From Candidatus Hadarchaeota archaeon (GTDB lineage: Archaea; Hadarchaeota; Hadarchaeia; Hadarchaeales; Hadarchaeaceae), in the NCBI GenBank assembly GCA_964514965.1, contig CAZETV010000002.1, forward strand, positions 37,547 to 101,546: DNA of 64,000 nt, given 5' to 3'. Below the pieces are notes generated by a model, which was not told where the DNA came from, did not search any database, and worked only from the letters and a program-made list of their open reading frames with translations. The position numbers and the translations under genes were made by a program. Positions 3,573 to 59,097 of the stretch are shown here, piece after piece. The stretch's first letter is position 1, and the number at the start of each line of letters is the position of its first letter.

Positions 3573-4640
3573 GTGGGCGATAAATTGGAGATCATGAAAC
3601 ACGCCATATCTAAAGTGGTAAGCGGAGAAGATTTGACCGAAGCTGAAGCAGAGACGACAATGAAGCGCATTATGTCAGGTGAAGCGACTCAGACACAGAT
3701 AAGCTCATTTCTAACTGCGCTTCGCATGAAGAGTGAAACGATTGAGGAGATTGCAGCGTTCGCTAGGGTTATGCGTGAGTTCGCGGCTCGGATAACCCCC
3801 AAGGTGGACGACATCTTGGTCGATACCTGCGGCACTGGTGGTGATAAAGTTAAAACATTCAACATAAGCACAGCTGCGATGTTTGCCGCTGCGGGAGCAG
3901 GAATTAAAATAGCCAAGCACGGCAACCGCTCGGTGACTAGCAAGGCCGGTAGTGCCGATGTTGTTGAAGCCATGGGGATACCGATAAACCTCCTGCCAGG
4001 CGAGGTACAACGTTGCATCGAGAAGATTGGAGTAGGTTTCATGTTTGCTCCACGATTTCATAGTGCTATGAAGTACGCGATAGGTCCACGCCGGGAGATG
4101 GGCATTCGAACTATTTTTAACCTTCTTGGCCCTCTGACAAACCCTGCGAACGCCCAGGGGCAGGTTGTTGGGGTTTATGATGGGATGCTGACCGAGAAGC
4201 TCGCTCAGGTACTCGCGCGCCTAGGCTGCAAGCGAGCAATGGTTGTTTACGGCTTAGACGGGATAGACGAGATATCTACCTTAGGGGAGACAAAAATTTC
4301 GGAGCTTGAAGACAGCAAAGTGAGTACGTATACAATATCGCCCGAAGAGTTCGGCCTCGCGCGAACTCGCTCTGAAGCCATTGCAGGGAAGGACTTGGCT
4401 GAAAATGCTCGAATGTTGCTTAAGGTACTGCGTGGCGAAAAAGGACCACGGAGAGACATCGTGTTGTTGAACGCAGCAGCCGCTATCGTTGTGGGGAGTA
4501 AGGCTAAAGATTTGCAAGAAGGAATTGCTATCGCTGCAGATGCCATCGATTCCGGTAGTGCTTACGAAAAACTCGTTCAACTCATCGAAGCGACGAACGG
4601 CAACTTGGACAAATTAAAAGCGTTGGAGGCTACGATTTGA
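3573..4640 (+). CDS. trpD: anthranilate phosphoribosyltransferase
   Basis: DTCGTGGDKVKTFNISTAAMFAAAGAGIKIAKHGNRSVTSKAGSADV is the classic TrpD glycine-rich / PRPP region. Confidence 0.9.
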   Translation: MGDKLEIMKHAISKVVSGEDLTEAEAETTMKRIMSGEATQTQISSFLTALRMKSETIEEIAAFARVMREFAARITPKVDDILVDTCGTGGDKVKTFNISTAAMFAAAGAGIKIAKHGNRSVTSKAGSADVVEAMGIPINLLPGEVQRCIEKIGVGFMFAPRFHSAMKYAIGPRREMGIRTIFNLLGPLTNPANAQGQVVGVYDGMLTEKLAQVLARLGCKRAMVVYGLDGIDEISTLGETKISELEDSKVSTYTISPEEFGLARTRSEAIAGKDLAENARMLLKVLRGEKGPRRDIVLLNAAAAIVVGSKAKDLQEGIAIAADAIDSGSAYEKLVQLIEATNGNLDKLKALEATI

Positions 4641-8130: not shown

Positions 8131-9663
8131 ATGAGGTACTTAAAATTGAATGCTAAGCCGCTCGACATGGAAACCGGGCGGAAAATCGTCGTGCTTCACG
8201 AACAGGATGCAGAAGAACTCGGACATCTTGCAGGCGACCGTGTGAAATTGACTAATCCAAAAGCCACATTGATCGCCATAGCCGATTCGACGAAAAGAAT
8301 GGTTCAGCGGGGAGAGATTGGGACTTTCATCGAAATCACTGAGGCCCTCAATCTCAAGCCCGGAGATGTTCTCTCTGTCACGCTTGCCCCCAATCCACAA
8401 TCGGTTGATTTCATTAGAAAAAAAATAGAAGGAGAGCAACTAGCAGCCGAGGAAGTCTACACAGTGGTTGATGATATAGTTGCGGGCAAGCTAAACTCGA
8501 TAGAGACGGCGGCATTCGTCGTTGCAGAGCACATCCGTGGGATGACAACAAATGAAATCGTTGCATTGACGCAGCGAATGATTAGCACTGGCGATAAACT
8601 AGAACTCGACATCACTCCAGTGTTTGATGTTCACAGTATAGGGGGCGTTCCAGGCAACAAGTATGCTTTGATCACCGTCCCGATTGTGGCCGCTGCAGGC
8701 TTGACGGTGCCTAAGACAAGTAGTCGGTCGATAACCAGCGCAGCAGGAACAGCTGATGTGATGAACGTTCTCGCTAACGTGACACTCGATTTAGATGAGA
8801 TAAAACGGATTATCGAACAGATCGGCGCGGTCTTGGTATGGGGCGGCGCGGTTAAGCTGGCCCCGGCAGACGATATTATAATCAATACAGAGCGGATGCT
8901 CGGGCTGGACCCCCGCTGCCAATTGCTCGCTAGCGTGATGTCAAAGAAACTGGCAGCAGGAGTCGACCACATATTAATTGACATTCCGACCGGAGCTGGC
9001 GCAAAGGTTAAAGACGTAAATCAAGCACGAAGCTTGGCACATGATTTTATTGAACTGGGGCGCCGGCTCGATGTCCAAGTTGAGGCAGCGGTAACTTATG
9101 GTGGCCAGCCCGTGGGCTACGCGGTCGGCCCCGCTCTCGAGGCTAAGGAGGCGCTTGAAACCTTACTCGGCAACGGACCAAGTAGCTTGGTAGAAAAAGC
9201 AACGAGTTTGGCAGGAATAATGCTCGAGCTCGGTAGAGCAGCTAGTCCCAGCATGGGGCAACAGATGGCGCTTGATATTTTGAAATCTGGCAAGGCGTAC
9301 AAAAAGATGTGTGAGATTATCGAGGCTCAGGGGGGCAATTCAAAGGTCAAGCCAGAGGAAATTCCGATTGGAGATAAGAAGGAGGTATTGCTCGCCCCTT
9401 CTACAGGATACGTGACACAAATCGATAATAAACGAATAAATGAAGTAGCCCGCGCTGCAGGCGCTCCGCGCAACAGGGGCGCCGGCTTGAGGGTTATCCT
9501 TAAGGAAGGGCGAAGAGTCAATAAGGATGAGCCACTTCTGGAAATTTACGCGGAGCACGAAACGAAGCTTGACGAGGCTTTAGCGATTGCTAAGCGGCGA
9601 CCGCCAATAAAAATAGAGGGTATGTTGTTGGAAAAAATGTCGCACCGCCCCCACATGGAATGA
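8131..9663 (+). CDS. AMP phosphorylase (type III thymidine-phosphorylase family)
   Basis: About 510 aa with an N-terminal extension plus HSIGGVPGNK, IPKTSSRSITSAAGTADV and WGGAVKLAPADD, as in archaeal AMPpase/DeoA. The start is ambiguous (8107 or 8131). Confidence 0.8.
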   Translation: MRYLKLNAKPLDMETGRKIVVLHEQDAEELGHLAGDRVKLTNPKATLIAIADSTKRMVQRGEIGTFIEITEALNLKPGDVLSVTLAPNPQSVDFIRKKIEGEQLAAEEVYTVVDDIVAGKLNSIETAAFVVAEHIRGMTTNEIVALTQRMISTGDKLELDITPVFDVHSIGGVPGNKYALITVPIVAAAGLTVPKTSSRSITSAAGTADVMNVLANVTLDLDEIKRIIEQIGAVLVWGGAVKLAPADDIIINTERMLGLDPRCQLLASVMSKKLAAGVDHILIDIPTGAGAKVKDVNQARSLAHDFIELGRRLDVQVEAAVTYGGQPVGYAVGPALEAKEALETLLGNGPSSLVEKATSLAGIMLELGRAASPSMGQQMALDILKSGKAYKKMCEIIEAQGGNSKVKPEEIPIGDKKEVLLAPSTGYVTQIDNKRINEVARAAGAPRNRGAGLRVILKEGRRVNKDEPLLEIYAEHETKLDEALAIAKRRPPIKIEGMLLEKMSHRPHME

Positions 9664-9739
9664 AATTACACTCTCAACCCGTACACGTTGTCGAAAAATA
9701 TGGGGCAGCGCTTGCAGTTTCATGTGCTTATGTTACCGT

Positions 9740-11380
9740 TTACTCCTCGCCCATCCCCATTTCTCCAGGAGAGGGCCCTCCCGGTGACGGCATCTCTTTC
9801 TTGGATGCAGATATCACATCGTCAATCCGGAGAATCATTATCGCAGCTTCACTTGCCGATTTTATCGCTTGGGTCTTTGTGCGTAGAGGTTCGATAACCC
9901 CCAGTTTCATCATATCCGTTACTTCACCTTTGTAGACTTCAATCCCGAAGGTTTTCCCCTTAGAGCCTTCATGCTTGGCGCGTAACTCCACAAGCATATC
10001 TATGCTATCCAGTCCTGCATTCTCTGCTAAGGTTCGTGGAATTGCTTCTACGGAACTTGCAAATCCATTGACAGCAAGTGCTTCGCGTCCACCAACAGTT
10101 TCCGCGTACTCTCTTAATCGCTTGGCTAATTCAATCTCGGGCGCTCCACCGCCAGTGACACTCTTGCCATCTTCGATTGCTGAAGCGACTACGCTGATTG
10201 CATCGTGTACAGCACGCTCAATCTCGTCGACTACGTGTTCGGTGCCACCGCGCACTAACAGACTTACAGCTTTCGGGTTCTTACAGCCCTCCACGAAGGT
10301 CATCTTGTCATCACCTATCTTCCGTTCCTCGATTAACCCAGCTTTGCCGAGGTCAGTGCTGGTTAGATCCTCGATGGTTGTGACGACTTTGCCTCCCGTG
10401 GCGCGGGCTAATTTCTCCATATCCGATTTTTTGGTCCGCCGGGTTGCGTAAATACCAACCTTCGAGAGGTAGTGCTGTGCAATGTCATCAATTCCTTTCT
10501 GGCATATAACGACGTTCGCGCCACTGGCAACGATTTGATCGACCATCTTTTTAAGCATGCTCTCTTCCTCATCCAAAAACGCGCGGAGCTGGTCAGGCCT
10601 ATTGACTCTGATTTCGGTATCGGTTTCGGTCTTTTTTACTTCAAGAGCACAGTCAAGCAAAGCGATATTGGCATTTTTCACCTGTTTTGGCATCCCCGGA
10701 TGGACGCGCTCCTTATCAAGAATAACCCCTTGGACAAGCTGAGAATCTTCAGTGCTCTCTCCGGGCTTCTTCTCAATACCGATGTAATCTATGTCAATTT
10801 TGTACCTTCCATCCGTTTTGTCCGCTATTTGCTTCACAGCGCTTACAGCGAGGCTGGCGAGTTTCTCTTTCGCGCTCTCCGCTTTCTTCCCGGTCATTGC
10901 GGTCATCGCCATCTGCTTGAGAAGCTCTTCCTTTTCAAAAGTCACCTCATCGGCGAGTTCATTCAATATCTCTTGGGATTTATCAGCGGCCATTCTATAT
11001 CCGGCGGCGATTACCGTTGGGTGGATGGCTTGGTCAAGCAAGCGCTCTGCTTCGCGCAAGAGTTCGCCAGCAATTATCACAGCGGTAGTTGTTCCATCCC
11101 CAACTTCATCGTCCTGCGTTTTCGCCACTTCGACTATCATTTTCGCTGCCGGATGTTCGACTTCCATCTCCTTAAGAATCGTAACACCGTCGTTTGTAAT
11201 AACAACATCACCTAAACTATCAACTAACATTTTATCCATTCCCCGTGGGCCAAGCGTCGTGCGGACCGCTTCAGTTATCACGCGAGCCGCCATAATGTTC
11301 ATGCGCTGGGCATCACGGCCAATCACCCTTCGTGCACCTTCAGGTAGCACGATGACAGGTTTACCTCCTAGTGTACTCAT
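9740..11380 (-). CDS. ths: thermosome subunit (group II chaperonin)
   Basis: 546 aa with [15 protein letters not shown], the ATP-binding motifs and a C-terminal GGM-like tail (GMGMGEE). Confidence 0.95.
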
Positions 11381-11528: not shown

Positions 11529-12278
11529 GCGTCCGAACTAGAATTCATACCCGTTGTAATCGTTCTCGCAGCGGTTTGCATAGCCAACTACACGGACCTA
11601 CGGAAGCGAATAATACCCAACCGGCTCACGTTTCCGCTCATAGGAATTGGCATCGTTTTTTACGTGCTACTCGGTATTTGGCGCTGGGACTTCTGGACAG
11701 CTATATCTGGGGCGCTTGGGGCCGCAATAGCATTTGTAATCGGCTACTTGATGTGGCGCATAGGTGGCTGGGCCGGGGGTGATGTAAAGCTCTACACGGC
11801 TTTAGGGGCTCTGCTGCCATTCTATCCTGCACCATATGTCGAAAACGTGCCCTACCCATTCCCCATCACGATATTGTTTAACTCGGTCATCGCCATCTTG
11901 CCGATTCTGCTCGTTTACGCTGCAATCTGTCGCATTCGCGGACGAGGCATGCTCTATGAACAAGTCAAAATCACTGAACTCAAAGAGGGCATGATTCCTG
12001 CCGAGACAATTTACGAGAAAGACGGTAAAGTCAGGCGCGGGAGCTCAAAATTTGGGCTGAAACTAAATTACGATCGCCTTTATACTAACCCTAGGCGGGC
12101 AGCTGGTCTCACGCGTTATCAAGTCGGGGCGCTTAAGCGTCTGGTTCGTGAACGAAAACTGAAGAACTATATAAAACTCAAAAAAGGTATACCATTCGCC
12201 CCCGCACTCGGATTGGGTGTGTTCATCGCTATTTTCTACGGCGATTTATACTGGGGATTGATACGCAGTCTTATTTGA
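11529..12278 (+). CDS. type IV prepilin/preflagellin peptidase (A24 family); N-terminus lacks a canonical start codon in frame
   Basis: The ORF called from GTG at 11664 contains the GGDVKL motif. The in-frame upstream stretch back to the stop at 11526 encodes a TM helix plus the catalytic-Asp motif (NYTDLRKRIIPNRLT) but contains no ATG, GTG or TTG. A TTG at 11525 lies in a different frame. Confidence 0.6.
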   Translation, partial: ASELEFIPVVIVLAAVCIANYTDLRKRIIPNRLTFPLIGIGIVFYVLLGIWRWDFWTAISGALGAAIAFVIGYLMWRIGGWAGGDVKLYTALGALLPFYPAPYVENVPYPFPITILFNSVIAILPILLVYAAICRIRGRGMLYEQVKITELKEGMIPAETIYEKDGKVRRGSSKFGLKLNYDRLYTNPRRAAGLTRYQVGALKRLVRERKLKNYIKLKKGIPFAPALGLGVFIAIFYGDLYWGLIRSLI

Positions 12279-12289
12279 AAAATCATGTT

Positions 12290-12535
12290 CTATTTGGGGC
12301 ACAGCAAAAGATGTCTAACCTCCCCCGATGTCAGGAGAATCCGATCCGACTCGATGAACGCCAGTACCTTGCCCTTAGCCGCAAGCACGCACTCTGCCGC
12401 CGCTAGCAGTGCGGCCAAATCTTGAAATCTCCACACCGAATGCTGCACCAACTGCGCGTTACACTTCAAATAGTGATTCATCTTTCGCCTTGCGTCGCTT
12501 CGACCATCTAGGTCGTAAACAAGCAGATACGCCAT
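12290..12535 (-). CDS. Cas2-like small nuclease-fold protein (orphan)
   Basis: From Met-28 of the called ORF, MAYLLVYDLDGRSDARRKMNHYLKCNAQLVQHSVWRF matches the Cas2 pattern (M..LV.YD., RR.K, G.RVQNSVFEC). There is no cas1 and no array nearby. Confidence 0.45.
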   Translation of the reverse strand: MAYLLVYDLDGRSDARRKMNHYLKCNAQLVQHSVWRFQDLAALLAAAECVLAAKGKVLAFIESDRILLTSGEVRHLLLCPK

Positions 12536-12560
12536 GTCATCACCTGTCCTATTCAGAACG

Positions 12561-12884
12561 CTACGCCACGGGTTTGCCACCTTTGAGCATAACTTCCCTT
12601 CCGTCGTCGCCCTCATCGTAGAGCACCCAAGTAAGCCTAGGTGTCGCTGCAGACATGCGTCTCACCGTTAGAACAATCCGTAGTCTTTCCTCGCGGCTGC
12701 GAACTTGGGTGAATCCCCATCGAGCGTCGCGCGGCTCCATTCCTTCGAGGATATCTGATTTCCGCCACAGCTTTATGCGTTCGTTAAAACTGCGTTGCAT
12801 GTTGAACTCCTCCTTAAGAGCCCGAAGCGCTTGGAGTTCACCGGGGCAAACGGCTTCGAGGGTCTGATAATGAATCAGTTCCAT
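12561..12884 (-). CDS. small protein of uncharacterised paralogous family (paralog A)
   Basis: Starts MELIHYQTLEAV. It shares IKLWR..WGFT.V...R.R..V......TPRLTW...DEG with ORF 30977-31288 and carries the same conserved promoter/5' module. Confidence 0.5.
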   Translation of the reverse strand: MELIHYQTLEAVCPGELQALRALKEEFNMQRSFNERIKLWRKSDILEGMEPRDARWGFTQVRSREERLRIVLTVRRMSAATPRLTWVLYDEGDDGREVMLKGGKPVA

Positions 12885-12935
12885 TTCTCCCGCCGAGGAG
12901 TTGGGTGGGGGTTGTTTATAAAGATGCAAATTTTA
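12850..12935 (-). repeat. copy 1 of conserved promoter + 5'-coding module (TTTATAAACAACCCCCACCCAA..CTCGGCGGGAgAAATGG...)
   Basis: The reverse complement aligns with 30226-30320 and 30935-31030: TATA box, about 22-nt leader, then the first roughly 13 codons. Confidence 0.7.
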
Positions 12936-29656: not shown

Positions 29657-30088
29657 TTACTTCTCCGCCTCTTCCTCAAGCGCCCCCGTATGGAGTGTTT
29701 CCCATTCTACTTTTCCTTGTTCGACCACGCGCTTGAGCTTTCGTTCGACCGGGCTCAGAGCTGCAGTTTTACCGGTCTTGACATCGAGAAATATGATTCT
29801 TCTTGGCTCCCCCTCCTTGTAGCCATCGAACACCAAATAGTCCACAGGCGAACCTATGAACCGCGCATCAGCCGGCTCGTGTTTGAACATCGGCAGCAAG
29901 GGAGCAAGTTGTTCACCAATCCTGCCTTTAAGCACCGCCCGGCTTCGCTCGAGCACCTCTCGCCTGATCCTTTCTTCGAACTCGGCTTTCCATCGTTCGA
30001 ACTGCACAGCCAGCCGCCCTCGGAGATATGTGTAGGCTAAAAAGATGCCGATCAAAAGTCCGATGACGAAAACGACTATCTCGATCAT
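29657..30088 (-). CDS. membrane-anchored PD-(D/E)xK nuclease related to archaeal Holliday-junction resolvase (COG4741-like)
   Basis: N-terminal TM helix, then VDYLVFDG ... IIFLDVKTGK (D...D/E-x-K) and a conserved Glu. Confidence 0.5.
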   Translation of the reverse strand: MIEIVVFVIGLLIGIFLAYTYLRGRLAVQFERWKAEFEERIRREVLERSRAVLKGRIGEQLAPLLPMFKHEPADARFIGSPVDYLVFDGYKEGEPRRIIFLDVKTGKTAALSPVERKLKRVVEQGKVEWETLHTGALEEEAEK

Positions 30089-30225: not shown

Positions 30226-30320
30226 TTTTTCTCGCTTATAAACAACTCCCACGCAAAGCTTCGGCGGGATGAATGGGGCGAACGCTTTTCCATCGGACGA
30301 AAGAGGCGGTAAAAGCTGAG
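30226..30320 (+). repeat. copy 2 of conserved promoter + 5'-coding module (CTTATAAACAACTCCCACGCAAAGCTTCGGCGGGATGAATGGGGCGAACGCTT...)
   Basis: Aligns with copy 1 (reverse complement) and copy 3. The coding part is fused in frame to an unrelated RHH antitoxin ORF. Confidence 0.7.
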
Positions 30321-30398
30321 CTCACACGCTCAACACTTGCGCAGAGAGGAGACCAAAACACTTTTAATTGGTGTAAACAAAAATGTTTACGTGAAAAA

Positions 30399-30620
30399 AT
30401 GCCCCAAGTCCAGCTGAGGGTACCTGAGGGAACGCTTGAAGAACTCGATAAATGGGTAAAAGAAGGTAGATTCAAAAGCCGCAGCGGCGCGATCAAAACC
30501 ATCATTGCTTTTTACCAAGAGCGGGAACGAGCGCGCAGCTTCTACAAGATGCTAGTAGAGCGGAGCCGAGAGGCCAAGAAAAAACCAGAACTCCTCATTC
30601 CACTAGGGGAATTAGAGTGA
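30399..30620 (+). CDS. ribbon-helix-helix (CopG-like) antitoxin
   Basis: PQVQLRVPEGTLEELDKWV has the RHH beta-strand plus helices and precedes relE by 4 nt. The longer ORF from 30273 adds the repeated MGRTLFHRTKEAV N-terminal remnant. Confidence 0.6.
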   Translation: MPQVQLRVPEGTLEELDKWVKEGRFKSRSGAIKTIIAFYQERERARSFYKMLVERSREAKKKPELLIPLGELE

Positions 30621-30883
30621 GTTTTCAGGTCTTCCTGCATCCCAAGGCGGTGAACTCTCTACAAAAGTTAGACAAGCTAATCAGGGGCGAAATAAAAAAG
30701 AAGTTGAAGGAGCTGGAAAAGCAGCCCAATTCAGGCAAACGGTTGCGATATTCTAATTTTTGGGGTTTAAGGGTGGGAGACTTTAGGGTTATCTACGAAA
30801 TCGATCGTGCCGAAAAAAGAGTGATTGTATTATTCATCGGACACAGGAAAAAAGTTTACGACGATTTTTCAAGGATATTCTGA
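30617..30883 (+). CDS. relE: RelE/ParE-family toxin
   Basis: 88 aa; GDFRVIYEIDRAEKRVIVLFIGHRKKVY is the RelE fold signature. Confidence 0.75.
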   Translation: MSFQVFLHPKAVNSLQKLDKLIRGEIKKKLKELEKQPNSGKRLRYSNFWGLRVGDFRVIYEIDRAEKRVIVLFIGHRKKVYDDFSRIF

Positions 30884-30934
30884 TTGAGCTGCTGCTAGCA
30901 CCATAATCTCCGAAGGATCGCCCCCAACCAATTT

Positions 30935-31030
30935 CCCCCATATAAATAACCCCCACCCAAAGCCTCAGCGGGATGAATGGGGCGGACGCTTCATTATCGA
31001 ACGAAGGAGGCCGTAACAGTCGAGGAGTTC
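30935..31030 (+). repeat. copy 3 of conserved promoter + 5'-coding module (ATATAAATAACCCCCACCCAAAGCCTCAGCGGGATGAATGGGGCGGACGCTT...)
   Basis: Aligns with copies 1 and 2. Confidence 0.7.
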
Positions 31031-31288
31031 AAACAGATACGAGAGATCGCGAACAGGTACAACGCGGGGCACAAATGGGCATACGAAAACATCAAACTCT
31101 GGAGGGAAACGAGCGGCACGCTCTGGGGATTCACAAAAGTCAACGACAGCGCCCGGGATAGAAAATTGGTAATTCAAGCGATAAAGGAGATTTCCAAAAC
31201 GACGCCACGGCTGACCTGGCTGTTCTTCGATGAGGGCTGGCTGGGAAAAGGCGAGTGGGCAAGATTCAAAGGTGGAAAGCAGGTTTAG
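30977..31288 (+). CDS. small protein of uncharacterised paralogous family (paralog B)
   Basis: MGRTLHYRTKEAV...IKLWRETSGTLWGFTKV...TPRLTWLFFDEG, homologous to 12561-12884. Confidence 0.5.
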   Translation: MGRTLHYRTKEAVTVEEFKQIREIANRYNAGHKWAYENIKLWRETSGTLWGFTKVNDSARDRKLVIQAIKEISKTTPRLTWLFFDEGWLGKGEWARFKGGKQV

Positions 31289-31369: not shown

Positions 31370-32143
31370 TTGGAATTGACGGTGTTGATTGGCCCCAGCT
31401 TGGAGGACGCGAAGGAACTCCTGGCAGCTGCGATAAGGGACAAGCGGCTCGCCCTGCTCGTCGGCTCCTGCGTGGTCAACTACATCGGGCGGGCCGGCTC
31501 GGTGCTCCCCGAAGGCGAGCGCGTGGTGATGCTCAAGCCGGATGGGGCCCTGCTCGTCCACCAGAAGAAGAAGCGGGAGCCCGTGAACTGGAACCCGCCC
31601 GGCTGCGAGGCGAGCGTGCGTCTAGGCGGGAAGGGCCTGCAACTCATCTCCAAGCGGAAGCGGCCAAAAGAGCAGCTGCTGGTCATCTTCAAGAGCCTAG
31701 AGCTGGCCGCGTCCTTCGAACTCGTCGATCAAGAGGAGCTTTACCTCGTGGGGTCGGAGCGGGACCTAATCACCCTTGTGTTCAACGAGCCGAGCCTGAT
31801 CGAGCCGGGCTTCAAGCCACTTGAGCGGGAGAAGCTCACGAAATACGGCATGGTTGACCTTTACGGCGTCGACCGGGATGGAAATGGTGTGGCGATAGAA
31901 TTCAAGCGTCGGCGGGCCGAACTCGCCAGCGCAAGCCAGCTCAAGCGCTACGTGGATGAGCTGAGCAAAAAACTCGGAAAGCGCGTCCGAGGCATCCTAG
32001 TGGCCCCCTCGATAACCTCGAGCGCCCTGAAGCTACTCAATGAAAATCAGCTGGAATACGTACGAATCAGGAAGCCACCCACCTACACCTTTGAACGGGT
32101 TGTGACCCGGGAGCGGGGGCAGAAGGGAATAAGTGAGTTTTGA
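31370..32143 (+). CDS. nucS: endonuclease NucS/EndoMS (RecB-like, mismatch-specific)
   Basis: 257 aa. The C-terminal GMVDLYGVDRDGNGVAIEFKRRRAE (D...D...E-x-K) and overall length match NucS/DUF91. It is markedly GC-richer than its flanks. Confidence 0.7.
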   Translation: MELTVLIGPSLEDAKELLAAAIRDKRLALLVGSCVVNYIGRAGSVLPEGERVVMLKPDGALLVHQKKKREPVNWNPPGCEASVRLGGKGLQLISKRKRPKEQLLVIFKSLELAASFELVDQEELYLVGSERDLITLVFNEPSLIEPGFKPLEREKLTKYGMVDLYGVDRDGNGVAIEFKRRRAELASASQLKRYVDELSKKLGKRVRGILVAPSITSSALKLLNENQLEYVRIRKPPTYTFERVVTRERGQKGISEF

Positions 32144-37156: not shown

Positions 37157-38482
37157 TTAATTTCGTGATTTCTGTATCAAGGTTTCCGTATCGTTTCTCC
37201 AGTATTTTAAATTTTTCTTCAATTTTTGAATCGACTTGTTCTTTAATTTTTTGCTTTTATTTTCATAGCCAGTTTCTAGTTTTTTGATTTCTCTTTCAAG
37301 TTTGATCATGCTTGTGTCAAAATTTTTAAGGTTATCGATGGATCGGGCTAAATCGGTTTTTAATTTAATCAAATCCGAACTAATGGCGGATATATCGCTT
37401 ATTTTTTTAAGAAGACTCTCAACTTTTTTTCTACAACTGATATTCTTTTTAGTTATGTCCGTCCCACAGATACAATTACCATCTTTAAGTAATTTTTCTA
37501 AATATTTTGGGTCTATATTTGGCGGTACATTTTCTTGGTCTTGTTCTCGAGTAATCTCTTTAATTGTGGATTCTATAGCAGGATAAGTTAGTAAATGCAG
37601 GGAAGAATCTACAAGAAAATCCGTCAATTCATCTCTCTTATCTTTTATTGTTTTTTCAAGATCTTTCAAATCACGTTCAAGTTCTTCCCTGGTTTCCTGT
37701 AAGTTCCTTATATTTGGCATTGACTTTAATTCTTCGGCTATTTCGTTTTTATCCTTAACTTTCCCATCTTTTATTTTACGGAATTTTTCCAAGTCGGCTT
37801 TATAGTTGTTTAAGGATTTCTCCCAAGTATCAATTTTCTCTTGAGCATCTGCAAGAGCGGGAGTTAACTTTTTTGATTTTCTTACAAATTCGTTTTGTAT
37901 TGCTCCCAAGTGCGATATCGCTTTTTCCAACACTTCCAATTGAGAAAGTTTAAAAATCTCCTTTTTTATCTCCTCACCAGATTTTTCTCTAAAATAACTT
38001 TCTAGCTTTTCACCATCAAAAAGAAAATAGTCTACAATACTCCCTGGTATCAACTGATTAGCAACATAAGTCGGATCAGAAACAAATTTCATGTCGTCTC
38101 CGATTTCTCGTAAAAGTTCAAATTTTTGTTTGTTGGGAATTTCTTTTACTTCGCCATTTTCTTCACAATATTTTGTGCTTCTCACAAAAATCGCTTTATT
38201 TCCTTCATTGTCTGTCATTACAATTTCCACTTTTACTTCACATGCTGATGGACTCTCCTTTAAAGAAATAGTATTGACCGTGGGCAAAGCTAAACTTTTT
38301 TTATTTAGGTGTAACTCCCTGCCATATAAGCACCAAGTAATAGCGTTCATTATGTTTGTTTTCCCTGCCCCGTTTCTACCTTCTAAGACGACTATGTTTT
38401 TTTTGCCGAATGGTGCAGGGAACTCTATTATTTCATTTGCATATTGCCTATAATTAATTAATTTAATTTTTTTAATTAACAT
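37157..38482 (-). CDS. DndD/SMC-like ABC ATPase, N-terminal half (Walker A + coiled coil)
   Basis: IKKIKLINYRQY...VLEGRNGAGKTNIMNAITWCLYG, then a long Lys/Glu-rich coiled coil. It is separated from the C-terminal half by 35 nt and a frame change. Confidence 0.6.
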   Translation of the reverse strand: MLIKKIKLINYRQYANEIIEFPAPFGKKNIVVLEGRNGAGKTNIMNAITWCLYGRELHLNKKSLALPTVNTISLKESPSACEVKVEIVMTDNEGNKAIFVRSTKYCEENGEVKEIPNKQKFELLREIGDDMKFVSDPTYVANQLIPGSIVDYFLFDGEKLESYFREKSGEEIKKEIFKLSQLEVLEKAISHLGAIQNEFVRKSKKLTPALADAQEKIDTWEKSLNNYKADLEKFRKIKDGKVKDKNEIAEELKSMPNIRNLQETREELERDLKDLEKTIKDKRDELTDFLVDSSLHLLTYPAIESTIKEITREQDQENVPPNIDPKYLEKLLKDGNCICGTDITKKNISCRKKVESLLKKISDISAISSDLIKLKTDLARSIDNLKNFDTSMIKLEREIKKLETGYENKSKKLKNKSIQKLKKNLKYWRNDTETLIQKSRN

Positions 38483-38485
38483 GAA

Positions 38486-38656
38486 TTATTTCACCGCCTT
38501 TTTTACAAGATTTTCGTACGTTTCACTATACCACCAACGATCTTCCTCGGAGTGGTCTGTTTCTAACATCAATATTTCTTTCAGAAATTTTTTGGTTTTT
38601 TCACTATAATTGCTTTTTTCAATTTCTTTGATGATTCTTTCGTTTAATATAGCCAT
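38486..38656 (-). CDS. small ORF (56 aa) between helicase and ATPase genes
   Basis: MAILNERIIKEIEKSNYSEKTKKFLKEILMLETDHSEEDRWWYSETYENLVKKAVK. Its stop abuts the ATPase ATG. Not in the ORF track (<60 aa). Confidence 0.3.
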   Translation of the reverse strand: MAILNERIIKEIEKSNYSEKTKKFLKEILMLETDHSEEDRWWYSETYENLVKKAVK

Positions 38657-38664
38657 GTGAACCA

Positions 38665-40761
38665 CTATAGGTTAAATTCTTTCCTTATTTTTTTAACTTT
38701 TTCAAGACACTTCGGGGTGTTGTTAGCATCATATGCGAACTCTTCGTATCTCTTTAGCTCTTTTATCAGTATCTTCCTTTCCAATTCAAAAAAATCTGGT
38801 TCGAAAGAACGTTGCGAAGAGGGCAAAACAATAATGTCGTAGAGTGTGGCCTTGTCCTTTCCCGGAAAACGTCTTAAAAGCCTCCCTCTTCTTTGAATGA
38901 ATTCTCTGGGATTACCCGAGCTCGAGAGCAATATGCCTGTTCTGGCGGGTGGAACATCCACTCCTTCGTCTAAACATTTCATTGCAACTAAAATCTGATA
39001 ATCGCCATCGGCAAATTTTCGGAGCAAAATTTCTCGTTGGGCAACGTTTTCGACCGCTGTAAACTTGTGTTGTAAAATATCTCTGTCGTTTAAAATTCTT
39101 TGAACTCTCTTTATCTGTTTTGGCGAACAATAAACAAAGCAATGTCTGGCACCGCCACCGATCTTGTCTAATATTTTTTCAAAAACAACGTATTTGTTTT
39201 GAGCGTTTTTTACGGTCTCTTGACGTTTTATACATAACAAATTAAAAAGTTCCTTTCTCTCCTGGTTAGACTTGCATGCGTAATATTGTCGAGCAATTTT
39301 CTTAGTTTCAGATTGATAGAGGTAAAACTCTTCGTCAGTCATCTCGACGAAATAGGGTTCATATTCGTATGGTGTGAGATAAGTTTCTCCGGTTTTTGGA
39401 TTTACAGTTGTGATGGCATCTTTTATAGAGAAAACTGATACTATATCTCCGAAATACTCAAAAAGTTTTTTGCTTCCAGGTTCATCAAAATATCTTTTAG
39501 GTGTTGCACTTAACCCCAACCTGAATTCATATCGGTCTAACAAACCTTTTTGTCTCTCTGGTGCCCCGAGGGTATGAACTTCGTCGCCAATTAAAAATAC
39601 TTTTGCGCTAGTTTCATTTATTATTTCAGTAAAATCATTACTAGAAATGGTATTTGGGGTAGTTAAAATTATTATTTTTTCACTAATGTCATTTTCTATG
39701 TCCCGCAAGTAGTCAACCAGTTTATTTTTCCAACCTGGATTGCTACTATCAGCGATTACGATAAGCCAATGAATGTCAAATTTTATTATTTCATTTTCCC
39801 ATTGTTTCAGCAAATGTTTGGTGGGTGAAGTAATGACAATGACAAGCTTTTTTTCTGATTCAGACATTTTCTTCAAACATCCCAACGCAGCAAACGTTTT
39901 CCCAGAACCTGTAGCCATTTCAAAAATCCCTTTCTTACCGTTTTCTAACCAATTAGCGATAGCACTCTCTTGATGAGTCCATAACTTGATTGCTTTTTTT
40001 CTTATCCATTCTTTCTTTATCAACCATTTGTCCAGATTCAAAACTTCAACATTGTCTGGAGCTATTTTAATAAGCTTTTCTTTTACGCCGGTGGGGACAT
40101 CGATAACTTTTGTTCTTCTTGCCTGTCCATTCCAGAATTTTTCAAATTTTTTGATATCTGTATCAAGATATTCTTTTTCAGTTTCTTTCCAACTACAAAA
40201 TACTTTAAACTCTTCTATATGCCTCGTCCATCCATAAGCGCTTTCGTTATCAGAACCGCTAAACGATATTCGGTTCCCTTCTACATCTTCTAATATACCG
40301 ACCTTCTGATGAAACAATCCTTCTTTTTCGATAGATTCTTCATCAAGAGGTAGCCCGTCCTCATCATAAACGATTGCTATTTTAATTTCTAGTTTCTTTT
40401 TGGCAATCATCCACCCCAGTGCGCACACATGGTCTTCCACGAATTTATCTTCTAAATTTTCCAATTCTTCAAGCATCATTTTTTCTATCACTTTCTCAGG
40501 AGTTTCATGAGCTTCTCTAATAACTTCAACATCGGATTTTCGTAGTTTGGCGCTTGTAACTAAATACATGAATCCACCATTGGAAATCAATTTAGAAATT
40601 CCTCTCGCGGCAACAGCAAGAGCGCTTGAAGAGAAAAATCCAGCTAACCTTTTATAAGTTACTGATTGGGATAATGCAAGTATGTAAAAGTCATTTAGAA
40701 TATCGTCAATGTCGGAGTCGTAAGCTTTTTTTAGCTTTATACCCTTCAAGGTCATGTTCAC
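38665..40761 (-). CDS. PLD-family (HKD-like) nuclease domain fused to SF2 ResIII/DEAH-type helicase
   Basis: N-terminus has FHQKVGILED...SFSGSDNES (HxK...GSxN). Then ATGSGKTFAA (motif I), LIGDEVH (motif II) and QRRGRLLRR (motif VI). GGAGG SD lies 8 nt upstream of the ATG. Confidence 0.7.
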   Translation of the reverse strand: MNMTLKGIKLKKAYDSDIDDILNDFYILALSQSVTYKRLAGFFSSSALAVAARGISKLISNGGFMYLVTSAKLRKSDVEVIREAHETPEKVIEKMMLEELENLEDKFVEDHVCALGWMIAKKKLEIKIAIVYDEDGLPLDEESIEKEGLFHQKVGILEDVEGNRISFSGSDNESAYGWTRHIEEFKVFCSWKETEKEYLDTDIKKFEKFWNGQARRTKVIDVPTGVKEKLIKIAPDNVEVLNLDKWLIKKEWIRKKAIKLWTHQESAIANWLENGKKGIFEMATGSGKTFAALGCLKKMSESEKKLVIVITSPTKHLLKQWENEIIKFDIHWLIVIADSSNPGWKNKLVDYLRDIENDISEKIIILTTPNTISSNDFTEIINETSAKVFLIGDEVHTLGAPERQKGLLDRYEFRLGLSATPKRYFDEPGSKKLFEYFGDIVSVFSIKDAITTVNPKTGETYLTPYEYEPYFVEMTDEEFYLYQSETKKIARQYYACKSNQERKELFNLLCIKRQETVKNAQNKYVVFEKILDKIGGGARHCFVYCSPKQIKRVQRILNDRDILQHKFTAVENVAQREILLRKFADGDYQILVAMKCLDEGVDVPPARTGILLSSSGNPREFIQRRGRLLRRFPGKDKATLYDIIVLPSSQRSFEPDFFELERKILIKELKRYEEFAYDANNTPKCLEKVKKIRKEFNL

Positions 40762-44430: not shown

Positions 44431-44510
44431 AAACTGCTCCGAACTTGAACTCCCACAGGCTACTGCTCCAATTTAAATGATATCCCCACCACTTTGTAAC
44501 GGGAAATCTC

Positions 44511-45152
44511 ATGCACGAAAACATCAGGCTCGGAGTGACCCGCCTCCAATCGGCTCTCGACTGCCCCCTCTGCTTCTGGCTCTCTCGGCGTATTGGCTCG
44601 CCTCCCTCCATCTTCGCCGGCATCCCCGCCCAGATTGACTCCGTGATCAAAAATTACATGAAGCAATTCATCGGGAACTCGGATTTGCCTGAGTGGTTCC
44701 CCGTGCGCGGCACCTTCATGGACGCCAGCCAGACCCTGAGAGCAACCGACCCGACCACCTGCATCACCGTGGTGGGAAAGCTCGATGCTTTGGTGAAGAC
44801 GGCAGACGAAGAATATCACATCATCGACTACAAAACTGGCAGGCCCCCCAAGGAGGTTCCAAATTACTACCAAATGCAGCTCGACGGCTACGCCTACCTC
44901 CTCGAGCAAAACGATTTCCGGCCCGTGGTGGGCGGCACGTTGCTTTACTTCACGCCCGAGCATGGGGACCTCTCGGAGGGGCGCTTCCCGTTCAAAATCA
45001 CCGCTGTGCGGGCCGAGGTTGACCCGGGCCGCATCCCGCCCGTTCTCGCGCTGGCCAGGGAAATCCTCGACTTGCAGACCCCGCCGCCCAGAAGCGAGGA
45101 CTGCGAGATGTGCATGTGGCGGGAGCAGGTCGAGCACACTCTATCAGAATGA
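44511..45152 (+). CDS. Cas4-like PD-(D/E)xK nuclease with 4-Cys cluster (stand-alone)
   Basis: N-terminal CPLCFW, core HIIDYKTG (D-x-K-T) and C-terminal DCEMCMW are the DUF83/Cas4 hallmarks. Confidence 0.55.
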   Translation: MHENIRLGVTRLQSALDCPLCFWLSRRIGSPPSIFAGIPAQIDSVIKNYMKQFIGNSDLPEWFPVRGTFMDASQTLRATDPTTCITVVGKLDALVKTADEEYHIIDYKTGRPPKEVPNYYQMQLDGYAYLLEQNDFRPVVGGTLLYFTPEHGDLSEGRFPFKITAVRAEVDPGRIPPVLALAREILDLQTPPPRSEDCEMCMWREQVEHTLSE

Positions 45153-47000: not shown

Positions 47001-48914
47001 ATGTCTGCAAGCGCCATAATCCAAGAGATAATTCTAGAAAATTTCATGAGTTACGAATATTCTAGAATCCCATTCAATCCGGGGCTCAACCTAGTTTGCG
47101 GTCCAAACGGCGCTGGAAAGTCATCAATTCTGCTCGCTCTAGCTGTGGCCCTTGGGCAGACCTACACCGAGCGCTCCCGTAAGCTCAGCGACCTCATCCG
47201 CCGGGGTAAGAATCTGGGACGAGTGAGCGTGGTGTTCGACAATTCCCCCCACAATGGAAGGAGGCCCATCCCGAGCGTGAACTCTGATAGTCTAGTCCTT
47301 TCGCGCTATCTGAACCGCGACGGAACCTACTGGCATGAGGCCAATAACCGCACGATAACGAAGGGCGAGGTGCTGCGGCTGCTCGGGCGGCTCTCGATAA
47401 ACCCCGACAACATGCTCATCATCATGCACCAGAACATGATTGATGTGCTCGGGGCGATAGATGCACACGAGCGGCTAAAAATCATCGAGGAAGCGGTCGG
47501 GCTGCGCGAGTACCGGGAGCATATCCTCGAGGCGCGTGAGAAGCTTTCGCACACCTTGAGCGAGGAGGAGTCGATTCGCAGCCTGCTCGAGAAAGCTCAA
47601 GAAACGTTGCGCTACTGGGAGGGCGAGTACGGGAGATTTCAGCGGAAGCAAGAGCTCGGAGAGCGGAAGCAGGAGCTAGAGCTGGAATACGCTTGGGCGA
47701 AATGTATCCGGCAGGAAGAGGCGGTCGGCAACCTTCAATCTAAACTCGACGGGCTAAAGTCAGAGCTGAGTGAGATCGAGGGCGAGCTGGAGCAAAACTC
47801 GAAACGTGGCGGGGAGCTTGAAAAAAAGTTGGGGGAACTTGGGTTTGAACTCGATGCTGCCTATCAAAAGCTCATCACCCAAGAACGGGCACAAGCCGAA
47901 GCGGGGGCACGCGCCAAGCTCATTGAGAGTTTCAACACATCCATACGCTCGGTGGCCGAAGTTGGCTTGAGTGAATTGCTCGCACACCTCGAGGTCGAAC
48001 TGGGGCGGGCGAAAGAAACCCTTAAAGAAGCCGGCGAGCGGGCGAATGAGGTGAAATCTGAACTCGTCAGGGGCAAGGGCGAACTCGAGAAAACCCAAGA
48101 AACTTACGTTAACTCCCGTATCCACACCGCCGTGCTGGGGTTCCGCCGCGAACTCCTAGAACGTGACATCTCAAGCGCTCAGTCCGAACTCAGGCGAGCA
48201 CGCCGCGAGCTGGAACAACTGGAGAATGATGCCCAGCAATTGGGGACGCGGGTCGAGACCGAAAGAAAGCCCCAGGAAGTGCTCGATGAACTCAAACTCA
48301 CCAACATCCAACTAGCCAGCTTAGCTGATGTCTCACCCGATGTCGAGAGGATGTATCTAAACTACAAGGGTACACTCAAGGAACTCGAGGCAAAGGCCGA
48401 GGTAGCTGCAGCCAACCGTAAGCGGGCGCTCGATGAGCTGGAACTCAGAAAGCAGCGCTGGACCGATGAAACAAACAACCTTATACGTCAAGTTAAGGTG
48501 AACTACATCGAAATCCTGAAGCGAGTTAACGCGAGCGGTGATGTGATTCTGACGAACGCTCAAGATATCGACGAAGCAGGGATAGAGCTGTTCGTTGGTT
48601 TCAGGGGGTCCGAACCTCAGGTGCTGAACGCCTACACACAGAGCGGAGGGGAACGAACGACTTCCCTAATGTGTTTTCTGCTGGCGCTGCAGCAACAAAT
48701 TCAATCCCCCATCCGTGCAATCGACGAGTTTGAAGCCCATCTGGACCCACACAATCGGGAGGCAATCCTGCAGGGGATTATAGAGTTCATGAAGGGCGGG
48801 GAGACGCAGTACATCGTGATCACCCCCGGACAGCTTTTCAACGTGAAAGGGATACCAAACGTGATCACCGTTCAAAACATCGCGGGCTCATCTCAGGTGA
48901 AGGTGGCTGCTTGA
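47001..48914 (+). CDS. short SMC-like ATPase (about 640 aa)
   Basis: N-terminal FMSYEYSRIPF..LNLVCGPNGAGKSSILLALAVALG, a long coiled coil, a C-terminal QSGGERTTSLMCFLLALQ signature and IRAIDEFEAHLD Walker B. Confidence 0.7.
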   Translation: MSASAIIQEIILENFMSYEYSRIPFNPGLNLVCGPNGAGKSSILLALAVALGQTYTERSRKLSDLIRRGKNLGRVSVVFDNSPHNGRRPIPSVNSDSLVLSRYLNRDGTYWHEANNRTITKGEVLRLLGRLSINPDNMLIIMHQNMIDVLGAIDAHERLKIIEEAVGLREYREHILEAREKLSHTLSEEESIRSLLEKAQETLRYWEGEYGRFQRKQELGERKQELELEYAWAKCIRQEEAVGNLQSKLDGLKSELSEIEGELEQNSKRGGELEKKLGELGFELDAAYQKLITQERAQAEAGARAKLIESFNTSIRSVAEVGLSELLAHLEVELGRAKETLKEAGERANEVKSELVRGKGELEKTQETYVNSRIHTAVLGFRRELLERDISSAQSELRRARRELEQLENDAQQLGTRVETERKPQEVLDELKLTNIQLASLADVSPDVERMYLNYKGTLKELEAKAEVAAANRKRALDELELRKQRWTDETNNLIRQVKVNYIEILKRVNASGDVILTNAQDIDEAGIELFVGFRGSEPQVLNAYTQSGGERTTSLMCFLLALQQQIQSPIRAIDEFEAHLDPHNREAILQGIIEFMKGGETQYIVITPGQLFNVKGIPNVITVQNIAGSSQVKVAA

Positions 48915-48915
48915 A

Positions 48916-49707
48916 ATGCCGGGCGAACGCAAAGAACTGATGTTACGGATAATCGACCTCTGCGACACTGTGCGAAAGCGAGGAGTCGACCCCTTCGACG
49001 TTGAGGTTCGAGAGTTTTTTGACCGACTGCGGGAACTCCTCCCAAATCTGAAAAAGAATGAGGACCTTTATCTTGACATCCAAGCGGTGCTCGGGCTTGC
49101 CGATGTGGTGTTCCAGCAGGGCGAGTGGATCAAGCACAAGTCGTCGATGCTCTACCTCGATCCCCTGCTGATTATGCTCAAGCTTCATGCCCTCCCGGCG
49201 CGAGAGCTTGCCGATGTCTTCGCGCGTTCATGGCACCCCATTGTGCAGATGGAGACACTCTCGCCCCACGGCATTTCCGAGGCCAAGCAGTACTGGACTA
49301 ATCTACCGAGCCTTGAAGAACGCTGGCGTGGGCTCGACACGACTGAGGTGTTTACTGGGGAGATAGCCCGCCGAGAGCTCGTTCGCATGGGCATCCTTTC
49401 AGAGGAAGACTTCGCGGCGGTGCTTGATCAGACTTGGCGCGAGCTCAAGGAAGCGGTGGGGGAGCGGGGCGAAATCTCTTACTGGGATTTCATCCACAAC
49501 CAGAGCTTCGAGGAAACCGTCAGGCGGGCATGGCTCGTGAGCTTCTTGGTGAGCTATGGCTACGCCACTCTCGAACTCAAGCCCCTTGAGGAGGAAATTT
49601 TGCTGAGACCGTTGCCCAAACCGCGAGAACTCGAACGTGTCACAACCTTCTCTGTCCCTATCGCTATTTCCCGTGACGAGTGGCTCAGGAGGCTAAAGGG
49701 TGGCTGA
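48916..49707 (+). CDS. ScpA/kleisin-like protein
   Basis: Its TGA overlaps the SMC-like stop. The N-terminal helical region (LRIIDLCDTVRKRGVDPFDVEV..FFDRL) resembles ScpA. Confidence 0.45.
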   Translation: MPGERKELMLRIIDLCDTVRKRGVDPFDVEVREFFDRLRELLPNLKKNEDLYLDIQAVLGLADVVFQQGEWIKHKSSMLYLDPLLIMLKLHALPARELADVFARSWHPIVQMETLSPHGISEAKQYWTNLPSLEERWRGLDTTEVFTGEIARRELVRMGILSEEDFAAVLDQTWRELKEAVGERGEISYWDFIHNQSFEETVRRAWLVSFLVSYGYATLELKPLEEEILLRPLPKPRELERVTTFSVPIAISRDEWLRRLKGG

Positions 49708-50311
49708 GGAACCAGATGTCGCCGAGCTACGGGAAAAGCTGGCGCGGGCTGCACAGCTCCTGCTCTACAAGCACCACATGCAACCGGGAGCCAAGGAATG
49801 GGAGCTCAGGCGCACTCTGGGCAGGGACTACGAGCAGATTCTGAAGCTTCTCGACGCCGAATTCGATAAACTGGGGCTAAAAGTAAAGCGAGTGAGCGAG
49901 GGCGAGACCAGCTCGGAATCGGACAGATATTATGTCACGCTCCGAGGGCATCCGAGAGTGACCGAGACCCGAACCTTCGGGTGGCGGATTGATGACATGG
50001 CAATGCTCACCGTCGCGCTCGCCCACATCCTATCAAAACAGGGAAAAGCCCCCCTCAAAGAGGTCGAGCGAATGTTGGAGGAAAAATTCCCGCGCTGGCG
50101 CATCGAGTCGACTTTAGACCGGTTCATCCGGCGGGGCTACCTGTCGGAGGATGATGAAGGGTTGCTCTACGTGGGGTGGCGCGCTCGGGCGGAAATCGAC
50201 CAGCGAACTCTGCTCGGGTTGTTGTTGGGGAAAGAAGAGAAGCCTAACGAAGCTGAGGCCGAGCCGAAAGTCGAAACCAAGAAAGTAGAAGAAACTAAAG
50301 GAGATAGCTAA
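49700..50311 (+). CDS. ScpB/kite-like winged-helix protein
   Basis: Two predicted wH repeats and an acidic C-terminus. Overlaps the ScpA-like stop. Confidence 0.4.
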   Translation: MAEEPDVAELREKLARAAQLLLYKHHMQPGAKEWELRRTLGRDYEQILKLLDAEFDKLGLKVKRVSEGETSSESDRYYVTLRGHPRVTETRTFGWRIDDMAMLTVALAHILSKQGKAPLKEVERMLEEKFPRWRIESTLDRFIRRGYLSEDDEGLLYVGWRARAEIDQRTLLGLLLGKEEKPNEAEAEPKVETKKVEETKGDS

Positions 50312-58966: not shown

Positions 58967-59097
58967 AATTGACTGCGGCTAGTGAAAAAGTTTTGGGGCG
59001 TTGGATATTCTAAATATGACACGCTATGCTCAGCGCCTTTTTGTTAATGAGGCGATGAGATTTTAAGGATTCACACCTGAGAGAGCTTGGGAGCTCG

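Follow-up and report, generated by a model that had tools for sequence, protein, structure and literature searches.

What does a Cas2-like protein do in a locus that has neither cas1 nor a CRISPR array? The question is raised by a small gene on the minus strand (12290-12535) of a stretch of contig CAZETV010000002.1 from a Candidatus Hadarchaeota archaeon; the whole stretch, 64,000 nucleotides long, is called the window below. The gene follows another small gene, upA (12561-12884, minus strand), and the two form a tight unit. The protein could be a genuine Cas2 that works for a CRISPR-Cas locus elsewhere in the genome, or the toxin of a toxin-antitoxin pair, or it could be tied to some element of its own. 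The feature that best defines the locus proved to be a family-specific hairpin repeat of 16 nt, which lay beyond the reach of a sequence-only reading of the window and is decayed there. In related loci the Cas2-like gene sits inside the main array of this repeat, and we tentatively favour the reading that the hairpins are targets of the protein.

The open reading frame (ORF) of the Cas2-like gene is real. It encodes 81 aa followed by a stop codon (MAYLLVYDLDGRSDARRKMNHYLKCNAQLVQHSVWRFQDLAALLAAAECVLAAKGKVLAFIESDRILLTSGEVRHLLLCPK, beginning with MAYLLVYDL and ending with LLLCPK), and a gap of 25 nt separates it from the end of upA at 12561, just as the sequence-only reading, where upA was called paralog A, had described. 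A mechanically called version of 108 aa with the start at 12616 was rejected as an artefact, since MAYLL or an equivalent methionine starts the 29 full-length homologues, and the additional N-terminal residues are the intercistronic hairpin repeat translated.

By sequence, the likeness to Cas2 is marginal. The Pfam model PF09827 matched the protein with E = 1.2e-3 and 19.4 bits (curated cutoff 23.8 bits), and TIGR01573 with 18.2 bits (cutoff 24.5 bits), in both cases over residues 1-36 only; five Cas2 models and one Cas2d model from PADLOC matched the same N-terminal stretch with E from 1e-4 to 3e-2. Cas2 was the only family matched in Pfam and NCBIfam, with no transposase family among the matches, and at E <= 10 none of Pfam, NCBIfam and PADLOC gave a match to a VapD family, so that the likeness to VapD is structural only. 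Among 24 members of the wider family, 14 matched PF09827 at E < 0.01 (best E = 6.8e-6), and a few matched PaaX_M and ChrB_N, the Cas2-like domains of PaaX and ChrB. When PDB sequences were searched, the profile of the narrow family gave only spurious coiled-coil matches, and the wider-family profile was needed to reach Cas2 (best match 7kft_B, E = 0.002; also 3exc, 2ivy and 7cr6).

The predicted structure is clearer. The AlphaFold model (predicted local distance difference test, pLDDT, 83) has strands at residues 3-8, 28-31, 34-37 and 56-61 and helices at 14-26 and 40-52, that is, a ferredoxin fold of the Cas2/VapD type, with the conserved Asp8 at the end of the first strand and the motif VQHSVWRF. 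In a Foldseek search of the PDB with this model, matches 1-44 were all Cas2 or VapD (probability about 1, template modelling score 0.41-0.58), the VapD structures being 6zi1, 6zn8 and 3ui3. Asp8 is retained in 28 of the 29 full-length homologues, and QHSVW is near-invariant. Thus, the Cas2 consensus noticed by the sequence-only reading reflects more than chance: searches with Cas2 hidden Markov models stayed below threshold and the structure prediction returned the Cas2/VapD fold, so that, as modelled, the protein truly belongs to the Cas2/VapD superfamily, as a divergent member, rather than to Cas2 proper. The family forms about 35 clusters at 56-100% identity, is strongly basic (median net charge about +9) and is distributed almost exclusively in Hadesarchaea; its distant members are proteins of 67-74 aa encoded by solo genes in other archaea. 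A search of 1.84 billion proteins yielded 26 cluster representatives, none of them a typical Cas2.

The surroundings of the gene hold no trace of CRISPR-Cas. In the 64-kb window no CRISPR array was found, and there are no cas genes among the annotated genes (public gene calls supplemented by batches of Pfam searches). Likewise, neither cas1, nor any other cas gene, nor a CRISPR array was found near the gene in about 25 related loci with flanks of up to 10 kb; the loci checked for cas1 and arrays comprised 13 from genomes, 14 from metagenomes and 2 further ones (L numbers are given below where loci have to be told apart). On viral contigs, neither the Cas2-like protein nor hairpin arrays were found. 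The content of the window is archaeal (thermosome, AMP phosphorylase, the trp operon and an archaeal prepilin peptidase), and its relatives are genome bins of Hadesarchaea (Hadarchaeota), where some public records label the homologues 'CRISPR-associated endonuclease Cas2'. The Cas2-like gene is independent of CRISPR, i.e. an orphan, and here too the sequence-only reading has been borne out, as it has in treating the gene and its upstream neighbour as one tight unit.

This unit is strictly kept. The upA gene lies directly 5' of the Cas2-like gene in all 11 complete genome loci and in two further loci (13 of the 13 fetched by protein), as well as in all 13 metagenome loci with the pair that were long enough to show it; the gap between the upA stop codon and the Cas2-like start codon, 25 nt in the window, is 21-41 nt across the loci and usually 25-28 nt. 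The outer flanks of the pair vary: one set of loci has EndoV, a primase-polymerase and either Trm5 or Ldh_2 as neighbours, the window has GIY-YIG and the prepilin peptidase, and L008, L009 and L012 have different genes again. The GIY-YIG gene was rejected as a partner; it adjoins the pair in the window only, and in L010 the distance is about 1.2 kb and an amidohydrolase gene intervenes. At the same time, upA is found without the Cas2-like gene at the syntenic EndoV-upA-Ldh_2 site of L020 and L021, in L022, and in L023, where it precedes a ribbon-helix-helix (RHH) regulator. Since upA always precedes the Cas2-like gene yet also occurs alone, the dependence is one-way: the Cas2-like gene needs upA, and upA does not need the Cas2-like gene.

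The obligate upstream partner is a protein of 107 aa, with MELIHYQ at 12884 as its likely start, from a conserved family of at least 87 proteins; it has no match in Pfam, NCBIfam or PADLOC. Its model (pLDDT 94.5) is a small alpha+beta fold, for which the nearest PDB matches are ferredoxin-like but non-significant, and shows no DNA-binding or known antitoxin fold. The upA promoter and short leader (12885-12922, minus strand) consist of a TATA box TTTATAAA (12915-12922) followed by AACCCCCACCCAACTCCTCGGCGGGAGAA; nucleotide conservation among orthologues covers both the box and the 29-nt leader, and the promoter begins right behind the stop codon of whichever gene is upstream. Between the two genes, the segment 12536-12544 (minus strand) comprises a Shine-Dalgarno-like GGTGA (12540-12544) and a 4-nt spacer to the Cas2-like ATG; GG(T/C)GA occupies this position before the Cas2-like start in most loci, the window included. 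In the predicted RNA fold, the last upA codons pair with the region of the Cas2-like AUG. Pairing of this type is the usual signature of translational coupling, and the predicted fold therefore suggests that translation of the Cas2-like gene is coupled to that of upA. The ratio of nonsynonymous to synonymous substitution rates (dN/dS) ranges from 0.06-0.14 in upA to 0.15-0.27 in those copies of the Cas2-like gene that are intact; judged by these ratios, both genes are under purifying selection.

Alignment of the gene boundaries across the loci exposed the 16-nt palindromic hairpin repeat TGTCCTAAATAGGACA, with the common variant TGTCTCAAATAGGACA. The first copy starts 0-4 nt past the upA stop codon and ends directly in front of the Shine-Dalgarno-like motif where that is present. 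The second spans the stop codon of the Cas2-like gene, so that the C-terminal CPK and the stop codon are read as TGT CCT AAA TAG. Up to four further copies follow within about 130 nt, all in sense orientation, and the long C-terminal tails of some homologues (...VSNRT..CPK) are translated repeat copies. In the protein-fetched loci (about 156 kb), all copies lie within about 1.3 kb of the Cas2-like gene and none elsewhere; no hairpin clusters were found in about 134 kb of flanks, and no copy was found in the upA loci devoid of the Cas2-like gene, the homologous intergenic regions upA-Ldh_2 and TatD among them. When metagenome contigs were scanned for pairs of copies with 4-34 nt between them, 33 loci emerged, of which 14 (42%) adjoin the upA/Cas2-like pair; one contig, represented by the two stretches L035 and L049, carries the pair plus a separate array. 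The placement at the Shine-Dalgarno sequence and at the stop codon is fixed, though the partner upA has diverged to 52-94% identity.

If these arrays were CRISPR arrays, the segments between the repeats would be expected to differ from locus to locus. The gaps between copies vary from 2 to 70 nt, and the same linkers, e.g. ggcatcaattgaaat, recur at different loci; hence, by sequence, the arrays are mosaics and not CRISPR arrays. They are located at the ends of genes and between convergent ones, and T-rich tracts follow several of them. Copy number varies at the same site among close relatives (one in L004, two in L003, three in L014, five in L010). In every cluster except that of L012 the copies share one orientation, and the copies flanking the gene are direct rather than inverted. 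No Rfam family was found for the arrays.

The structure of the repeat itself helps to choose between an RNA and a DNA element. Among 174 copies, the 3' half, i.e. the loop and the 3' arm, AAATAGGACA, is near-invariant, with AAAUAGGACA invariant, and the 5' arm is variable. The stem pair between positions 5 and 12 is C-G in 110 copies, U.G in 59 and C.A in 4; in L011 the stem is kept although the centre differs. The hairpin unit folds as RNA with -6.3 kcal/mol (z = -4.5), and an outer stem joins the 3' end of upA and the Cas2-like AUG. Because of the asymmetry of the arms, the bias towards wobble pairs, the sense orientation and the placement before T-rich tracts, a function as a sense-strand RNA hairpin seems to fit better than a symmetric DNA operator.

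In the window the repeat has drifted. The intercistronic copy (12545-12560, minus strand; CGTTCTGAATAGGACA) has three mismatches to TGTCCTAAATAGGACA and as RNA still forms a 5-bp stem of -3.3 kcal/mol; the copy over the Cas2-like stop codon (12286-12301, minus strand; TGCCCCAAATAGAACA) also has three mismatches and no fold left; a third copy, 3 nt past the previous one (12267-12282, minus strand; TTTTTCAAATAAGACT), is strongly decayed. A fourth, orthologous copy (59006-59021, plus strand; TATTCTAAATATGACA), with three stem-breaking changes, lies 76 nt 5' of Ldh_2 (59098-60141); its flanks match the spacer between the array and Ldh_2 in L027, and this Ldh_2-side site holds the module or an array in many relatives. 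The closest relative, L010, has seven near-perfect hairpin copies. The window protein differs from that of L010 by eight residues, five of which are arginine losses (P about 8e-4 if random), and its net charge is the second lowest of the family. These observations hint that protein and repeats have relaxed together in the window genome. From the drift of all four hairpin sites and the five lost arginines we infer that the system here may be weakened or decaying, though both ORFs remain under purifying selection.

Several loci carry variants of the module. The Cas2-like gene is usually present in one copy per genome; the metagenome-assembled genome CSMAG_2711 holds two Cas2-like loci, L002 and L013, one by Ldh_2 and the other by Trm5; either the module was duplicated or relocated, or the bin is mixed. 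In L004 an insertion of about 870 nt (9143-9991), carrying the gene of a 173-aa signal-peptide/membrane protein, lies between the first hairpin and the Cas2-like gene and replaces the first ~10 Cas2-like codons, Asp8 among them; with dN/dS of 0.4-0.5, this copy is probably a pseudogene. In 12 of about 27 loci, the gene directly upstream of upA codes for a winged helix-turn-helix (wHTH) plus LigD-type primase-polymerase, and in L012 this gene is 7 kb off. In the 12 loci, L002-L007, L011, L025, L040, L042, L047 and L053 the encoded protein has 359 aa and the gene lies about 45-75 nt 5' of the upA start; it was found neither in the window nor at the syntenic site of L020 and L021, which lack the Cas2-like gene. 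It was rejected as an operon member: upA carries its own TATA box right after the stop codon of the primase-polymerase gene, so co-transcription is not required. CRISPR-associated primase-polymerases exist, and the recurrence of such a gene beside the Cas2-like gene may be worth a look.

The reading that we favour, though we put it at somewhat less than an even chance, is that a CRISPR-independent protein of the Cas2 superfamily is produced from the upA operon and has as its targets the hairpins of its own cistron and of a few arrays elsewhere, probably as RNA. The protein would probably act as a basic homodimer, as Cas2 and VapD do, and would bind or cleave the 16-nt hairpins, most likely in RNA, the substrates being the mRNA that encodes it and a few other transcripts. 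If so, the hairpins would be its targets both in cis and in trans, with autoregulation, processing or stabilisation as the outcome; the stem hiding the Cas2-like start codon would couple its translation to upA, and upA would probably be a partner or modulator of the protein. An enzymatic precedent exists in that both Cas2 (SSO1404) and VapD are endoribonucleases (PMC3506569, PMC3351183).

A number of observations weigh against this reading. The protein misses both curated Cas2 thresholds, and the sequence alignment is limited to its N-terminal half. The co-occurrence of gene and repeat could result from the shared ancestry of one clade and not from function. The wobble bias rests chiefly on one abundant variant, for which founder inheritance is possible. 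We know of no Cas2 or VapD protein with specific hairpin recognition. The 16-nt repeat was looked for near the distant relatives of 67-74 aa and was not found. Nineteen of the 33 metagenome arrays, with 2-8 copies each, lie at other intergenic sites, with no Cas2-like gene in the retrieved stretch; 8 of 20 gene-less arrays (these 19 and L055) adjoin Ldh_2, LigT or PUA genes, which in other genomes flank the module or its window relic, and one or two arrays (L041, L055) look unrelated. Finally, a general rule by which charge loss tracks hairpin decay had to be rejected, as the homologue P0027, with a net charge of -2, keeps intact hairpins.

In one alternative, which we regard as unlikely but serious enough to be weighed at some length, the pair would be a type II toxin-antitoxin system resembling VapXD, with the Cas2-like protein as an RNase toxin, upA as its antitoxin and the hairpins only tuning the ratio of the two. 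The sequence-only reading had compared the arrangement with VapD-type toxins, and the gene order it relied upon stands: a small upstream gene, a short gap and a toxin-like second gene, together with the putative translational coupling, suit such an operon, and VapD is among the best structural matches. The asymmetric dependence of the two genes, the variable outer flanks and an RHH-ParE pair elsewhere in the window that bears a copy of the upA-type promoter would fit as well. The toxin role has fared worse, however. The supposed antitoxin is better conserved than the supposed toxin, is inherited with the local synteny, has paralogues of its own and occurs independently, and neither its fold nor its lack of matches in the three profile databases suggests an antitoxin; moreover, the Cas2-like gene is usually single in a genome and was not found on viral contigs, its 67-74 aa relatives are solo genes, and the hairpin arrays at other loci would be left unexplained. 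If the protein were instead a genuine Cas2 working for CRISPR-Cas elsewhere in the genome, the motif, the fold and the public names of some homologues would be accounted for; against scores below the curated thresholds, the absence of cas1 and arrays beside the gene in about 25 loci, the strict coupling to upA instead, and a family of 26 representatives in which no typical Cas2 occurs, we consider it barely credible.

The remaining alternatives turn on what the hairpins are. They could be cis elements that have nothing to do with the protein, such as 3' stabilisers, pause sites or recombination-prone repeats, the protein then being, for example, a structural partner of upA. Their position at gene ends and between convergent genes resembles that of bacterial repetitive extragenic palindromic (REP) elements and mosaics of these (BIME), many arrays have no Cas2-like gene nearby, and Cas2-like domains also have non-catalytic roles, with some family members matching PaaX_M and ChrB_N. 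Still, 42% of the arrays found adjoin one small gene, their placement at two fixed points of the module has outlasted the divergence of upA, and in relatives without the Cas2-like gene the homologous intergenic regions hold no arrays, which makes an unrelated element rather improbable. Conversely, the repeats could be non-autonomous DNA elements propagated or maintained by the single-copy Cas2-like nuclease that they flank, in the manner of REPINs and REP-associated tyrosine transposases (RAYTs). Such a system would explain why the repeats bracket the gene and are missing where the gene is missing, why the arrays are dispersed with 'spacer' modules recurring between loci, why copy number changes at one site among close relatives, and why the window genome, with its altered protein, has only decayed copies; RAYTs too are single-copy and vertically inherited (PMC5581495). 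But the Cas2 fold differs from that of the HUH/Y1 transposases, and no transposase family is matched; the flanking copies are direct and not inverted; there are few clusters per genome; and with so many gene-less arrays next to Ldh_2, LigT and PUA, genes that flank the module itself, rearrangement could explain the dispersal without transposition. We find this version decidedly doubtful, and only a trace less so the broader proposal of a new archaeal system, made up of the Cas2-like gene and upA together with the hairpin arrays and perhaps the primase-polymerase, in which a protein of the Cas2 superfamily would generate, maintain or process short palindromic repeats without Cas1. If the latter were true, it would be an archaeal analogue of REPIN-RAYT with a Cas2 fold at its base, or else kin to the repeat-binding ancestor that supplied CRISPR adaptation with its Cas2.

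A different palindrome was noted at one distant relative. In L016, three to four copies of the perfect palindrome TGATACACGTGTATCA (3777-3957) lie 45-225 nt upstream of the gene for a 74-aa protein, which stands solo next to PIN-MazE and HEPN-NT pairs; at the remaining distant relatives no convincing palindrome was found.

The window also contains further copies of the upA promoter. Its three occurrences, 12885-12922 (minus), 30932-30976 (plus) and 30228-30272 (plus), read TTATAAA, AAC(C/T)CCCAC(C/G)CAA..C.TC.GCGGGA and then ATG, and as nucleotides they are far better conserved than the upA paralogues behind them (37% protein identity); the same element is conserved 5' of upA in all related loci and may be a shared regulatory site. 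The second copy precedes another upA-family gene, paralog B (30977-31288, plus; 103 aa, 37% identical to upA), downstream of which comes NucS (31370-32143), with neither a Cas2-like gene nor a hairpin; a gene for an archaeal nuclease resembling Holliday junction resolvases lies nearby (29657-30088, minus). The third copy, with the first 13 codons of a upA paralogue (MGRTLFHRTKEAV), stands ahead of an RHH/ParE pair (30273-30883, plus) consisting of an RHH (CopG) antitoxin, with its true start probably at about 30399, and, at 30617-30883, a ParE/RelE toxin; the arrangement suggests a toxin-antitoxin pair that captured a upA-type promoter. In L023, an RHH-wHTH gene follows the upA homologue.

Elsewhere in the window, the Cas4-like gene that the sequence-only reading had pointed out at 44511-45152 (plus strand) is indeed a PD-(D/E)XK nuclease of the Cas4/RecB type and stands alone (PF12705, E = 1.5e-14; PADLOC Cas4 models, E about 1e-8), with the Pfam Cas4 model scoring under its cutoff; the public gene call in this region (44460-45152) is an overlapping minus-strand ORF of 225 aa without a Pfam match and probably a mis-call. 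Two clusters could be related to defence or repair: an AAA_23/SMC_N ATPase (441 aa) beside a ResIII/SWI2-SNF2 helicase (698 aa) at 37157-40761 (minus), and an SMC_N/AAA_23 ATPase (637 aa) with two unannotated genes of 263 and 203 aa after it at 47001-50311 (plus), near the Lhr helicase (50661-53537).

As stand-alone proteins of the Cas2/VapD type are already known (VapD, BPSL1038), an orphan Cas2-like gene alone is unremarkable. The label 'CRISPR-associated endonuclease Cas2', however, would wrongly imply CRISPR adaptation in the Hadesarchaeal bins, and this annotation is corrected here. What sets the gene apart is its position inside the main array of its own repeat, together with the absence of the repeat from the examined loci without the gene. 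In a literature search we found neither a non-CRISPR gene of the Cas2 superfamily tied to its own short palindromic repeat nor a description of the strict coupling to upA, itself a well-conserved family with an unusually conserved promoter. If the protein does recognise the hairpins, this would be a testable clue to roles of Cas2-like proteins before or outside CRISPR, and a candidate archaeal counterpart of the bacterial REP-type repeat systems.

Compared with known systems, the locus shares single traits with several. It differs from Cas2 (PF09827, TIGR01573) in always following upA and never adjoining cas1 or a CRISPR array, and in the C-terminal half of the protein (GKVLAFxESDRILL and a helix). 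With VapD (VapXD of H. influenzae; HP0315 of H. pylori) it has in common the fold class, the downstream position in a small two-gene operon and the independence of CRISPR; here the upstream gene, upA, is the better conserved of the two and is also found by itself, and hairpin repeat arrays accompany the Cas2-like gene and not VapXD. BPSL1038 is a bacterial Cas2-fold protein with a D(X20)SST motif that has kept its catalytic Asp with no CRISPR-Cas context (PMC10491678); the Cas2-like protein likewise keeps the catalytic Asp away from CRISPR-Cas, and an obligate partner gene and a repeat array are described only for the latter. Cas2 homologues on mobile elements have also been discussed (PMC3506569). 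As in Cas6 with its CRISPR repeats and in the type III toxin-antitoxin system ToxN/ToxI, a small nuclease-type protein lies beside a repeat array that could provide an RNA substrate or ligand, but here the repeats are of 16 nt and flank and follow the gene instead of preceding it, and the protein is unrelated to either. CRISPR arrays have repeats of 24-48 nt and unique spacers of similar length, in contrast to the 16-nt repeat, the irregular gaps of 2-70 nt and the recurring linkers seen here. REPIN-RAYT and BIME systems (PMC3116915, PMC5581495, PMC2817692) resemble the locus in that a single-copy, largely vertically inherited gene is flanked by a short dispersed palindromic repeat, and in the mosaic arrays with recurring linkers and variable copy number. 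However, RAYT is an HUH/Y1 transposase of the IS200/IS605 type and the gene described here has the Cas2/VapD fold; REPs occur in hundreds and in alternating orientation, whereas the hairpins form a few co-oriented clusters per genome in an archaeal host.

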